Source: Candidatus Multivoradales bacterium
Lineage (GTDB): Bacteria; Acidobacteriota; Thermoanaerobaculia; Multivoradales; Multivoraceae
NCBI GenBank assembly: GCA_965223325.1
Contig: CBDCWI010000002.1
Coordinates: 4,032,001-4,096,000, forward strand
Length of the DNA: 64,000 bases
Reading direction: 5' to 3'
Position 1 is the stretch's first letter, and every line of letters begins with the position of its first letter. Shown in pieces: positions 31,071-38,713 of the stretch. Both the position numbers and the translations under genes were made by a program. The notes beneath the pieces are model-generated. The model was given only the letters and a program-made list of their open reading frames with translations. It was not told where the DNA came from and made no database searches.

Positions 31071-33248
31071 ATGAAAAGAGCCCTCTCACCGGTCTCCCTC
31101 CTTGCCGCATTGGTTGCGGTCGGCCTTCTGGCGACAGCTAGTCCAGCCGTCGCGCAACAAGACGATGACGAAACCGTGGTTCTAGACGAAGTCACGGTCA
31201 CCGCACGCAAGGTGGAAGAGAACCTGCAGGACGTTCCGGTCTCGATTGACACCCTGCCGCAGGAAGATCTGGACAACGCTCTCGAAGGCGGAGCCGACGT
31301 TCTCGCACTCGCCGGCCAGGTTGGCAACCTCTACGTCGAACAGTCGAACGGTCGCATCGCTCCGCGTTTCTACGTCCGTGGCCTCGGCAACACCGACTTC
31401 GATTCGGCGGCTTCGCAGCCGGTGTCGATCGTCCTCGACGAAATCGTGGCAGAGAACGTCTTCTTGAAGGCATTCCCGATTTTCGACACTGAGGCAGTGG
31501 AGGTTCTTCGCGGACCCCAGGGCTCACTCTTCGGGCGCAATACGACCGCCGGTGTCGTCAAGTTCAACAGCAAGCGACCGACCCAGGACAAGGACATGTA
31601 CCTGGCAGCCACGATCGGCAACCTCGAATCCAGCGCTCTCGAGTTTGCGGTGGGCGGCGGCCTCTCCGAGAACACCTCGGCCCGCCTGTCGCTCATGTAC
31701 CAGAACCGTGAAGACTGGGTAGACAACGCCTTCACCGGCGAGCGCGACGCGATGGGCGGTCATCAGGACATCGCCGCCCGTCTCCAGTTCCTCTACGAGA
31801 AGAACAACTTCTCGGCGCTGCTCAACCTGCACGGTCGTGACATGGAAGGCACCTCGACTCTGTTTCGCGCCAACATCGTGGGCCCCGGCAACAACAAGCT
31901 GAACTCCAACTTCGTTCGCGACACAGTGTTCTTCGACGAAACCGACAACAATCCGCAGTCGCTCTCCGGTCAGGGTGCAACGCTCACCCTGACGTGGGAT
32001 CTCGGCAACGACATGCAGCTGACCTCGATCAGTGGCTACGAGTCGGTCGACGCTGATGGTTTCGGTGACATCGACGGCGGCAACCCGACGGGTCCGGGTT
32101 TCATTCCGTTTGGCTCTCACACCGGTGGCTTCAACGAAGTCGAACAGCTGACCCAGGAGATCCGTTTGAGTCAGGACCATGGCGAAGGCTTCCGTTGGCA
32201 GGCCGGTGCGTTCCTCTTCGACGCCGAGCTCGACAGCATCACCCGAGTCTTCTTTATCGACGACAGTCGAACCGTCGAAGACAGCTCCGCCTGGGCCTTG
32301 TTCGGCCAGGGCACCAAGGCGCTCAACGATCGCCTCGACCTGACCATCGGACTGCGCTACACCGAAGACGAGAAAGACCTCACGATCCTCGCTTCGCCGG
32401 TTCCCAACGCTCCGGTGAGTGTCTCCGACGAGCAGGTGAGCTGGGACGCCAGCGTGGTCTATCAGGCAACCGACGACACCAATCTCTACGGTCGTGTTTC
32501 CTCCGGCTTCCGTGGGCCGTCGATCCAGGGTCGGGACATCGCCTTCTTCGGCTCACCGTCGACGGCGCGTTCCGAGACGATCTTGTCGTACGAAGTGGGC
32601 AGCAAGTCCGAGATCGCCAACGGGCGCGTGCGCCTCAACACCGCCCTCTTCTACTACACGGTTGACGACCAGCAGTTCACTGCCATCGGTGGTGACGGCA
32701 ACTTCATTCGCCTGGTCAACGCCGCAGAGGGTCAGGGTCAGGGTCTCGAGTTCGACCTCAAGTGGTTGGCAACCAATCGCTTGCAGCTGGGCGTCGGGCT
32801 CGGTCTCTCTGACACCGAGATCAACGACCCGAACCTGGCCGTCGCGACCTGCGGCTCAGGCCAGTGCACGGTACTCGATCCGCTCGACGGCAACGGCAAC
32901 GCTCTCGTCGACGGCAACCCGTTCCCCAACGCCCCCGAGTACACCTACAACCTGAGCGCCGACTACACGATTCCAATCGGTGATGGTGGCCTGTTGTTGT
33001 CAGCCGACTACGTGGTGATTGGCGATACCAACTTCTTCCTCTACGAGTCGGCCGAGTTCAACATCGACGAGAACCCCGAACTCGGTCTTCGTATCGGTTA
33101 CGCGTGGGCCGGGCAGGAGATCGCGCTCTTCGGTCGCAACGTCACCGACGAGGAGAACCTGATCGGTGGGATCGACTTCAACAACAACACTGGTTTCGTC
33201 AACGAACCGCGGACCTACGGCGTCACGTACAAGCGCTTTGTGTTCTAA
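31071..33248 (+). CDS. TonB-dependent outer membrane receptor
   Basis: Signal peptide, TonB box DEVTVTARK, plug VEVLRGPQGSLFGRNTTAG, C-terminal Phe. Confidence 0.95.
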   Translation: MKRALSPVSLLAALVAVGLLATASPAVAQQDDDETVVLDEVTVTARKVEENLQDVPVSIDTLPQEDLDNALEGGADVLALAGQVGNLYVEQSNGRIAPRFYVRGLGNTDFDSAASQPVSIVLDEIVAENVFLKAFPIFDTEAVEVLRGPQGSLFGRNTTAGVVKFNSKRPTQDKDMYLAATIGNLESSALEFAVGGGLSENTSARLSLMYQNREDWVDNAFTGERDAMGGHQDIAARLQFLYEKNNFSALLNLHGRDMEGTSTLFRANIVGPGNNKLNSNFVRDTVFFDETDNNPQSLSGQGATLTLTWDLGNDMQLTSISGYESVDADGFGDIDGGNPTGPGFIPFGSHTGGFNEVEQLTQEIRLSQDHGEGFRWQAGAFLFDAELDSITRVFFIDDSRTVEDSSAWALFGQGTKALNDRLDLTIGLRYTEDEKDLTILASPVPNAPVSVSDEQVSWDASVVYQATDDTNLYGRVSSGFRGPSIQGRDIAFFGSPSTARSETILSYEVGSKSEIANGRVRLNTALFYYTVDDQQFTAIGGDGNFIRLVNAAEGQGQGLEFDLKWLATNRLQLGVGLGLSDTEINDPNLAVATCGSGQCTVLDPLDGNGNALVDGNPFPNAPEYTYNLSADYTIPIGDGGLLLSADYVVIGDTNFFLYESAEFNIDENPELGLRIGYAWAGQEIALFGRNVTDEENLIGGIDFNNNTGFVNEPRTYGVTYKRFVF

Positions 33249-33482
33249 CGAAAGACGTGGTTGACGCCGTTGGGGCGTTTTCCTGGCGTTGGTTGAATGT
33301 GGTCGCTGTTTGGGCGTAGTACCTCCGCTGAGTGGTTACCACGTCTTTCGTTAGACGTCCTCTCCCCCCTTGGCGTCCCCCCAGGGGGGGCGGCGCAAGC
33401 GGTCCGTCGCGCGTGCCGGTTGCGGCAGGGTGCCGCCCTGTAGTGGGCGTCGCTGGCCTTCGTTTCGCCTGTCGCGCGCCGC
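33244..33482 (+). repeat. Single copy of the structured intergenic element (relative of the 37483-38713 array unit)
   Basis: Perfect 18-bp inverted repeat 33244-33261/33338-33355; 19-nt identity GCGGCGCAAGCGGTCCGTC (33390-33408) and GTCGCGCGCCGC (33471-33482) with the array unit. Confidence 0.85.
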
Positions 33483-33545
33483 TGAGAGATGCCAGCCGCC
33501 CGGCTACCATGGCGGGGAGCCTCGACGACCTTTCTACGGAGAATC

Positions 33546-36995: not shown

Positions 36996-37486
36996 CCGAG
37001 CCGTTTCCCGAGCGCGACATGGTGCAGCGGTTTCTCAGTCGCGCGATCGACCTCTCACGCGAGAAGATGCGTGCCGGCGAAGGCGGACCCTTCGGTGCAG
37101 TCATTGCGCGCGGCGACGAGGTGATCGCCGAGGGTTGGAACCGCGTGACCTCGTCGTGTGATCCCACCGCCCACGCCGAAGTGGTGGCCATTCGGCACGC
37201 CAGCGAAGGCACCGGAACTTTCGATCTCAGCGGTGCGATCATCTACTCGAGCTGCGAACCCTGCCCGATGTGCCTCGGTGCCATCTATTGGGCGCGGCTC
37301 GACGGCCTGGTCTATGCGAACACACGCCACGAAGCGGCGCGCATTGGCTTTGACGACGAGCACTTCTACGACCAGATGGGCCTGCCGATGGGAATGCAGA
37401 AACTGCCCACCCGTCACCTCACCAGCAATGCCGCACGGGCGGTGTTCGATGAGTGGTTAGAGAAGGCCGATCGCGTGGAGTACTAG
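36992..37486 (+). CDS. guaD: Guanine deaminase, cytidine-deaminase fold
   Basis: GGPFGA, DPTAHAEV, SCEPCPMC, GFDD, terminal Tyr. Confidence 0.85.
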   Translation: MTEPFPERDMVQRFLSRAIDLSREKMRAGEGGPFGAVIARGDEVIAEGWNRVTSSCDPTAHAEVVAIRHASEGTGTFDLSGAIIYSSCEPCPMCLGAIYWARLDGLVYANTRHEAARIGFDDEHFYDQMGLPMGMQKLPTRHLTSNAARAVFDEWLEKADRVEY

Positions 37487-37493
37487 CTTCCCC

Positions 37494-38713
37494 CGTGGTG
37501 GCACGTAGCGGGAGCCGTTGCCGTTTTGGTGTTTCTGTTGAGGTGGTTGTGGCGCCTTTTTGTTTTTCGGTGGGTCGTTTACCACGGGGGAAGCTAGCGT
37601 CACATCTGCGGCGCAAGCGGTCCGTCTTGCGTTCTTCTTCCTGGGCGCTCGCCCTGTCGTGGCGTCGGTGGTGTTCGTAGATTGGTCGCGCGCCGCGGAT
37701 TCTTGGCTTCGATGGAACAACTGGATCCGATAGGAACCGGGTCGTTGTACGTTGGCTCGTGGTGGCACGTAGCGGGAGCCGTTGCCGTTTTGGTGTTTCT
37801 GTTGAGGTGGTTGTGGCGCCTTTTTGTTTTTCGGCGGGTCGTTTACCACGGGGGAAGCTAGCGTCACATCTGCGGCGCAAGCGGTCCGTCTTGCGTTCTT
37901 CTTCCTGGGCGCTCGCCCTGTCGTGGCGTCGGTGGTGTTCGTAGATTGGTCGCGCGCCGCGGATTCTTGGCTTCGATGGAACAACTGGATCCGATAGGAA
38001 CCGGGTCGTTGTACGTTGGCTCGTGGTGGCACGTAGCGGGAGCCGTTGCCGTTTTGGTGTTTCTGTTGAGGTGGTTGTGGCGCCTTTTGGTTTTTCGGCG
38101 GGTCGTTTACCACGGGGGAAGCTAGCGTCACATCTGCGGCGCAAGCGGTCCGTCTTGCGTTCTTCTTCCTGGGCGCTCGCCCTGTCGTGGCGTCGGTGGT
38201 GTTCGTAGATTGGTCGCGCGCCGCGGATTCTTGGCTTCGATGGAACAACTGGATCCGATAGGAACCGGGTCGTTGTACGTTGGCTCGTGGTGGCACGTAG
38301 CGGGAGCCGTTGCCGTTTTGGTGTTTCTGTTGAGGTGGTTGTGGCGGTTTTTGTTTTTCGGTGGGTCGTTTACCACGGGGGAAGCTAGCGTCACATCTGC
38401 GGCGCAAGCGGTCCGTCGTGCGTTCTTCTTCCTGGGCGCTCGCCCTGTCGTGGCGTCGGTGGTGTTCGTAGATTGGTCGCGCGCCGCGGATTCTTGGCTT
38501 CGATGGAACAACTGGATCCGATAGGAACCGGGTCGTTGTACGTTGGCTCGTGGTGGCACGTAGCGGGAGCCGTTGCCGTTTTAGTGTTTCTGTTGAGGTG
38601 GTTGTGGCGCCTTTTTGTTTTTCGGTGGGTCGTTTACCACGGTGGAAGCTAGCGTCACATCTGCGGCGCAAGCGGTCCGTCGTGCGTTCTTCTTCCTGGG
38701 CGCTCGCCCTGTC
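37494..38713. repeat. Tandem array of a 264-bp G/T-rich unit, 4 full copies plus a 165-bp partial
   Basis: Units start at 37494, 37758, 38022, 38286, 38549 (264, 264, 264, 263 bp), near-identical with a few SNPs and one indel. Confidence 0.97.

Follow-up and report, generated by a model that had tools for sequence, protein, structure and literature searches.

A stop-codon-anchored family of hairpin repeats with variable yet paired arms in a Candidatus Multivoradales bacterium

What are the two structured elements that begin at the stop codons of unrelated genes in a 64,000-nt stretch of the genome of a Candidatus Multivoradales bacterium (GenBank assembly GCA_965223325.1)? This stretch, the window, is C2:4032001-4096000 (contig CBDCWI010000002.1) of a 6.69-Mb, 64% G+C assembly in two contigs, C1 and C2; coordinates without a contig prefix are window positions. 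A preliminary description of the window reported two such loci and left two options, a structured 3' untranslated region (3'-UTR) or noncoding RNA (ncRNA) family, or a non-autonomous mobile element resembling a miniature inverted-repeat transposable element (MITE) or a REPIN, a hairpin formed by a doublet of repetitive extragenic palindromes (REPs). The reading favored here, with evenly balanced confidence, is a lineage-restricted, non-autonomous DNA repeat that resembles MITEs and REPs or bacterial interspersed mosaic elements (BIMEs), not an RNA gene.

Both window loci lie on the forward strand. Locus 1 follows an open reading frame (ORF) at 31071..33248 for an outer-membrane receptor-like protein (C terminus ...YKRFVF), and its TAA stop (33246-33248) occupies positions 3-5 of the left arm of a foot hairpin. 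This hairpin (33244..33355) pairs 33244-33261 with 33338-33355 in a perfect 18-bp stem around a 76-nt GT-rich loop. Locus 2 follows a guaD-like deaminase ORF (36911..37486) whose TAG stop (37484-37486) occupies left-arm positions 2-4, and its foot hairpin (37483..37597) pairs 37483-37499 with 37581-37597 in a perfect 17-bp stem around an 81-nt loop. The perfect pairing at both loci and the upstream stop codons within the left arms, both claimed in the preliminary description, were borne out. Downstream of each hairpin come (C)GTCAC and then a GC-rich segment with GCGGCGC...GCGCCGC as its closing helix; this second hairpin, also claimed before, is indeed common to the two loci, as are GCGGCGCAAGCGGTCCGTC and GCCCTG. 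The segment belongs to a module termed R. Locus 1 has a single copy of module R (33356..33485) with the closing helix formed by 33390-33396 and 33476-33482 and an additional C-run/G-run hairpin at 33360-33389. Locus 2 is a tandem array (37494..38713; period 264, 4.6 copies, 98% matches). The R core of its first unit spans 37574..37718 (closing helix 37608-37614 with 37690-37696), and the other cores lie at 37838-37982, 38102-38246, 38366-38509 and, in part, 38629-38730. The array unit consists of CGTGGT-loop-ACCACG, an 11-nt right arm, module R and a tail. All units bear CGTGGT-loop-ACCACG-GGGGAAGCTAG; CTAGCTTCCCC, the left arm, is found a single time, at the gene end of the array, and the final unit stops after GCCCTGTC.

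An nhmmer profile of the ~146-nt core was run against the whole genome and the matches were grouped into strand-consistent loci. The search for further copies gave 177 cores at 70 loci (27 single, 43 with at least two copies, 28 with at least three, maximum seven). What had been described as two loci is a family of 70, and locus 2 is the start of an array of the kind in which the left arm occurs once. Array periods are ~130-360 bp with 84-100% matches (Tandem Repeats Finder). Perfect inverted repeats with a stem of at least 14 and a loop of 3-140 numbered 147 in an unbiased genome scan, and 49 of these carry a CGTGGT-like inner hexamer with stems nearly all of 17 or 18 bp, which places the inverted repeats of the window beyond chance. 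Four copies have the same stem at 18-19 bp with a loop of 3-4 nt, one of them at the gyrB stop. The consensus is NN-TAG-N7-CGTGGT-(GT-rich loop, 60-82 nt)-ACCACG-N7'-CTA-N'N'-(n)GTCAC-module R-tail, which gives each locus three parts: the 17-18 bp foot hairpin, the GT-rich loop and the ~150-nt GC-rich module R.

The hairpin is unevenly distributed along arrays. Among 50 gene-proximal units, 48 have at least 16 of 18 positions paired and 23 are perfect 18-mers. Only 6 of 84 internal units have at least 15 of 18 paired, and most have 10-11, as in random sequence; the intact hairpin is therefore confined to the first unit of an array. A hairpin without a downstream module R was never seen in arrays. 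An alignment of module R from 34 loci has a mean column identity of 71%. Copies are 93-100% identical within arrays versus 74-90% between loci. Loci start sharing homology at the stem foot, the sole exception being two paralogous genes. The right ends of arrays are heterogeneous; a duplicated left arm was not seen at them. Two accounts of the arrays were rejected. Coding repeats would need periods divisible by three, and periods such as 253, 256, 206, 163, 260 and 266 are not; repeated insertion next to a single target would leave N7 pairing in the internal units, where it is lacking.

Several sites depart from the consensus. Module R directly follows the stop, with no hairpin, at C2:3706296 and C2:1283899. 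At C2:2426766-2426875 the CGTGGT loop is absent and the two arms meet directly in a perfect palindrome, CTAGTGAGG|CCTCACTAG, which looks like a deletion of the hairpin tip. Family-like feet (e.g. TCTAGCGAGGGTCG and ACTAGTTTTGTGCGTGGT) occur without an R core at C2:90912-91687, C2:1640895-1641514, C2:1790644 and C2:4369698, and these R-less arrays and hairpins may be sister families.

Every element has the orientation of its upstream gene and begins at that gene's stop codon. Anchoring was quantified at the 35 loci whose stem is perfect over at least 15 bp, using an ORF cut-off of at least 97 open codons. An ORF ends at the stem foot in 31 of the 35, and the stop starts 1 or 2 nt within the stem in 29. 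The stops at the 35 loci are TAG (29), TGA (4) and TAA (2). Genome-wide, 3853 long ORFs end in TGA (2152), TAG (1472, ~38%) or TAA (229), and part of this TAG usage may come from repeats that bring their own TAG. The upstream proteins, named by eye without Pfam, are unrelated and include RecA, IMP dehydrogenase (guaB), AsnS, ArgG, RibBA, NqrF and outer-membrane proteins. All nine guaD orthologues inspected in relatives end at the same tyrosine with a TGA stop, which is TAG here. All five NqrF orthologues end ...FDDFG, with TGA in four and TAA in one, and their last codon is GGC or GGT versus GGG-TAG here. RibBA and AsnS have the final residue at the position found in the orthologues of relatives; the last residue of GuaB is unlike theirs, and ArgG is shorter here by 2-9 residues. 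Judged from these comparisons, the element stop usually occupies the exact native stop position and probably replaced TGA in at least two genes.

A conventional 166-bp MITE in the same genome served as a control. It is present at ~40 places and has an invariant 24-bp terminal inverted repeat (TIR), CTAGTACCCCGTACCATTGAAACG, that begins with CTAG. At 45 of its 80 ends it provides the TAG stop of an ORF with at least 90 open codons, and 29 of 35 paired copies do so at one or both ends (8 at both). No translation-coupled or other special mechanism is needed for the family since the control MITE is equally anchored (29/35 versus 31/35), and translation-coupled targeting was set aside on this ground. 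The enrichment at stop codons implied by the preliminary description thus holds at 31 of 35 intact loci, but it does not set the family apart from an ordinary CTAG-ended MITE. A TAG-containing target or terminus, combined with loss of harmful insertions, would be enough to produce the anchoring. By a crude count, 2243 TAGs stand at predicted stops versus 16503 other noncoding TAGs, and the enrichment of the family and of the control MITE at stops is therefore similar. Anchoring of this kind is unremarkable in this genome. It also has a precedent: GTAG REP termini are described as often giving TAG stops and REPs as lying within 20 bp of ORF ends (Di Nocera et al. 2013, PMC3733652). The control MITE sometimes gives TAG to both of two convergent genes, and a degenerate end of it lies at about window position 10174 (C2:4042174).

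The outer stem distinguishes the family from this control. N7 differs at almost every locus and both arms are still complementary, with only the inner hexamer and TAG shared. The heptamer CGAGGGG follows TAG at five family loci beside different genes and at no non-family TAG stop, which indicates that N7 travels with the element. The two bases before the stop at these five loci are TC, GG, TG, AC and TC, and the right arm complements each. Across first units the -1 base pairs nearly always and the -2 base in about half versus 25% expected, and pairing upstream of the stop never extends beyond the -2 base. The control MITE stem exceeds 24 bp in 3 of 16 perfect full-length copies, which is about chance. 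On a tree of loop plus module R, the -1 base requires 19 changes against a shuffle mean of 19.9 and the -2 base 22 against 23.1; this tree is star-like and poorly resolved, and two rows whose R part is intron sequence are misplaced. Mismatches in the foot stems are A-C/C-A (10), T-G (3) and others (10), and G-U is not favored.

This pairing bears on whether the target sequence guides insertion. A guide-bearing or target-templated element would pair its CTA-N'N' with NN-TAG and be joined 3' of it in single-stranded form, like IS200/IS605 elements or group IIC introns, or would have its slot rewritten from the target. The fixed length of the slot from ACCACG to GTCAC, stems of 17-18 bp and no longer, the excess pairing at -1 and -2, and the match of N'N' to differing flanks at the five CGAGGGG loci all speak for such a process. 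The genome also contains 28 Y1_Tnp-like ORFs, and IS608 is described as selecting a tetranucleotide target by base pairing that can be re-programmed (PMC5934647, PMC3201880). Guidance or templating is nevertheless considered rather unlikely: no Y1 gene is flanked by family hairpins, the 13-bp N7-CGTGGT stem that it predicts in internal units is mostly at background level, and a pure guide would require a new guide mutation for almost every jump. Quite unlikely, and put forward as speculation, is a specific form in which, with each insertion, the 12-nt slot separating ACCACG from GTCAC would be filled by a copy, in reverse complement, of the last sense-codon bases and the stop, and the native stop would so be replaced in register. 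The perfect 18-bp hairpin would lock the element to the gene end. Such target-templated, hairpin-guided insertion has no described counterpart, and would possibly be run by an HUH Y1 enzyme or an intron reverse transcriptase.

The preliminary description had also pointed out that removal of the hairpin and one TA restores CTAG, as a TA duplication would. On this account the hairpin alone would be a nested IS630/Tc1-type MITE that duplicated TA in a palindromic NTAN between the gene and a pre-existing module R. IS630 targets CTAG. In favor of this account, removal yields CTAG or TCTAGA at both window loci, a classic CTAG-ended MITE is active in this genome, and the hairpin-less loci at C2:3706296 and C2:1283899 have the expected arrangement. 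TA...TA does flank the hairpin, but this follows from the palindrome itself, and no duplication was seen at array ends. Duplication within CTAG fails at GTAG...CTAC and TTAG...CTAA loci, where the flanking base is still paired; GTAG...CTAC loci would have read GTAC before insertion, which leaves no stop codon. It also fails because arrays never hold the hairpin free of module R. The outer 11-12 bp of the supposed TIR are unlike between nearly all copies, complementarity past TA is far above chance where the control MITE extends in 3 of 16 copies, and a genome search for DDE_3 transposases returned 0 hits. Together these observations make the nested MITE very unlikely.

The level at which the structure is maintained was addressed in module R. 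Its closing helix P1 (7+3 bp with an AA bulge) has 98.5% of its positions paired. Two-sided changes are seen in four pairs (e.g. GC 23 / CG 10), and no pair changed on one side only. P1 covaries to a degree reached in 0 of 500 shuffles, and slid controls collapse. Departures from the commonest pair are all double changes, with 0 G-U intermediates in 340 cells. Folding of the sense strand is better than that of shuffles (z = -3.23), and the antisense strand gives z = -3.16; both window units score z = -3.2.

These data were weighed against a functional structured 3'-UTR or small RNA (a stabilizer, terminator, translation-termination sensor or sponge) whose dosage would be raised by the arrays. 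Such a role is consistent with the co-orientation of the elements with the upstream gene from its stop codon, the fold scores of both window units and the covarying long-range helix, and REPs elsewhere are described as thought to work as RNA elements (PMC3733652). The reverse strand, however, folds equally well (z = -3.2), P1 has no G-U intermediates, the foot stems have fewer G-T than A-C mismatches, and internal array units lack the hairpin. Rfam gave 0 matches at E <= 1 (window 33000-39000), and a sigma-70-like promoter was looked for and not found. Nor does the distribution resemble that of a conserved RNA. Model R1 matched 0 of 60 relatives, same genus included. This genome has 31 matches to TAG-N7-CGTGGT-N55-85-ACCACG-N7-CTA; 400 other genomes of the phylum together yielded one, and a reversed control pattern hit five genomes. 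In a wider pattern scan of genome contigs, 0 of the 80 loci fetched among the matches listed passed model R1, and a metagenome scan gave one weak 13.6-bit match. A functional RNA is accordingly judged unlikely. The strictly Watson-Crick upkeep and the single-lineage distribution favor a DNA-level repeat over a conserved RNA. The REPIN/MITE-like option of the preliminary description fits better, as the copies are dispersed behind unrelated housekeeping genes and found in this genome only, and the structured 3'-UTR/ncRNA option is not supported by double changes that are exclusively Watson-Crick, without G-U intermediates, or by Rfam.

Enzymes that could mobilize a DNA repeat were searched in the whole genome. 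The preliminary statement that the window holds no mobilizing enzyme stands, and none for the family was found elsewhere in the genome. Y1_Tnp (HUH) is represented by 28 ORFs of ~310-390 aa in several subfamilies, many clustered near contig ends (C1:2125521-2144032 and C2:4455548-4487574, plus dispersed copies). None of the 28 is a Y1 or REP-associated tyrosine transposase (RAYT) gene flanked by family hairpins, and only one adjoins an array (within 233 nt); the proposed search for a RAYT/Y1 or IS630 enzyme flanked by copies was likewise negative. A near-identical Y1 group is bounded by its own CAGTCGGGGGGACTTTCCC inverted motifs, with several copies just after stop codons. A RAYT-like 272-aa Y1 gene (C1:1305965-1306784) has runs of CCCGGGC(N)TTCCCGGGC repeats on both sides, and these repeats are a separate REP-like family. 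IS110-type enzymes gave 4 hits.

Module R is also the site of a group II intron. This ~1.9-kb element is present in 14 copies with identical ends, e.g. at locus L184 (C2:698836-700738), and carries an RVT_1 ORF (8e-39) and a match to Rfam RF02005 group-II-D1D4-6 (180.6 bits) on the strand opposite to R. Thirteen of the 14 copies share one insertion point in module R, where they adjoin R cores of the AAGCGGTCCG type, and 13 loci begin at model position 40-42, right after identical sequence ending ...GGCGTATCC. The copies often split array units. Read in the intron sense, a short R stem-loop and then TT lie just 5' of the insertion point. By analogy, the site appears similar to the stem-loop targets of group IIC introns, which are described as targeting such structures (PMC10190682). 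The location is shared by these 13 copies, and the R stem-loop would be the homing site that the intron recognizes.

The genome further encodes an integron-type integrase (TIGR02249, 422.7 bits versus the curated cut-off of 265) at C2:3806467-3808190. The attC sites of integrons are recognized as folded hairpins of variable sequence with kept pairing, have a total stem of ~18-20 bp with a variable loop, and are targets of group IIC introns in antisense. The family could accordingly be attC-like sites of this integrase, scattered as orphans. The conserved structure with variable sequence, the TTCTAAC...GTTAGAC at locus 1, the integrase itself and the entry of group IIC introns into attC sites described in PMC7923331 are in keeping with such an origin. 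It is nonetheless most improbable: the AAC/GTT core is found only in 2 TAA loci of 50, the stems are perfect without extrahelical bases, and the integrase adjoins a tRNA 3' half and three 134-bp repeats, each with a tRNA 3'-end copy, rather than an array of these units. No cassette array was seen beside it.

A DNA repeat of the REP/BIME-MITE kind could have reached its present form in four steps. The ancestral unit would be a strong hairpin, with an inner box CGTGGT/ACCACG and an outer box TAG/CTA, joined to the ~150-nt palindromic module R. In a past burst, copies of this non-autonomous element, with TAG in the left end, would have landed at stop codons or replaced them. Purifying selection would then have spared the copies whose own TAG ends the upstream ORF. 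Third, the outer 11-12 bp of the stem would drift while the arms remain exactly complementary, the palindrome being kept and extended by template-switch correction, which quasi-palindromes are described as undergoing (PMC7202029), or by selection on the DNA hairpin. The free right-arm slot would be rewritten to match the coding-constrained bases, which would carry the pairing 1-2 nt further, into the last sense codon; growth of the palindrome would be bounded rightward by the conserved start of R. Fourth, tandem duplication would have acted on segments that begin in or just after the hairpin, which would explain why only the first unit has the left arm.

Five observations weigh against this scheme. 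Copies at different loci are merely 74-90% alike, so a recent jump is undocumented. No transposase is tied to the family in the whole genome, where Y1_Tnp and DDE_3 were searched. No empty site, presence/absence polymorphism or target duplication was found, and the contigs of the four runs inspected were the same strain at low depth. The guaD and nqrF stops seem, from the orthologue comparison, to have been swapped in register, which simple insertion does not predict. Finally, the -1 base pairs whatever its identity and does not cluster on the tree, which guidance or templating would explain more directly than slow correction.

If the four-step scheme is right, the family would be a natural case of a long palindrome kept perfect despite sequence drift, and of a safe harbor for a group II intron within a repeat family. 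TAG-ended repeats would reach stop codons via selection alone, as the internal control element indicates. If guidance or templating were right instead, it would add a programmable single-strand insertion system. For annotation, the four-step scheme would mean that the TAG stops of housekeeping genes (recA, guaB, guaD, nqrF) can be repeat-supplied.

The family resembles several known systems. Like attC sites it forms a folded hairpin with an ~18-bp stem, drifting sequence with kept pairing and an antisense group II intron; unlike them it mostly has no AAC/GTT core, no extrahelical bases and no cassette ORFs, and does not cluster beside the integrase. The palindromic ends at C-TA-G and the same degree of anchoring are shared with CTAG/TA-targeting MITEs, of which the 166-bp element is the in-genome example. 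A classic MITE has invariant TIRs, is symmetric and single-copy per site, and is always in CTAG, whereas the family has variable arms, also uses GTAG, TTAG, TGA and TAA feet, is asymmetric and forms arrays. With IS200/IS605 elements and their miniatures, as described in PMC5934647 and PMC3201880, it shares hairpin-defined ends and no obvious target duplication, and its layout would be compatible with insertion in one orientation 3' of a short sequence paired with an internal guide. It differs from IS200/IS605 in that the presumed guide lies 3' of the hairpin and stacks on it by ordinary Watson-Crick pairing, these ends are found on no Y1 gene, the right end is undefined and mobility is presumed.

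In position the family is like REPs and REPINs, which are likewise high-copy, extragenic and at ORF 3' ends (70 loci here; 31/35 on the stop). The GTAG- and CGTC-tagged REPs and BIMEs described in PMC3733652 are high-copy palindromes just after ORFs, where the TAG of the tag is often the stop, and their clusters are reiterated in tandem along with flanking DNA; some REP families described there have no dedicated transposase. Many family copies carry a CGTC-like motif after the right arm (CTAG-CGTCAC), like a REP tag. Unlike RAYT-mobilized REPs and REPINs, the family has no RAYT gene flanked by inverted copies. According to the same source, REPs are 20-40 bp long, with stems of 8-14 bp, family-wide conserved sequence and an unpaired tag (PMC3733652). 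The family instead has a ~112-bp hairpin with a 17-18 bp stem, NTAG paired inside the stem and a 60-82 nt loop, together with 11-12 positions that vary but remain complementary, a structured module of 150 nt and array units of 130-360 bp. What is new for a repeat of the REP/MITE kind, in one genome so far, is this composite architecture, with perfect 12-bp outer arms that drift and reach into the last codon, tandem arrays and intron homing.

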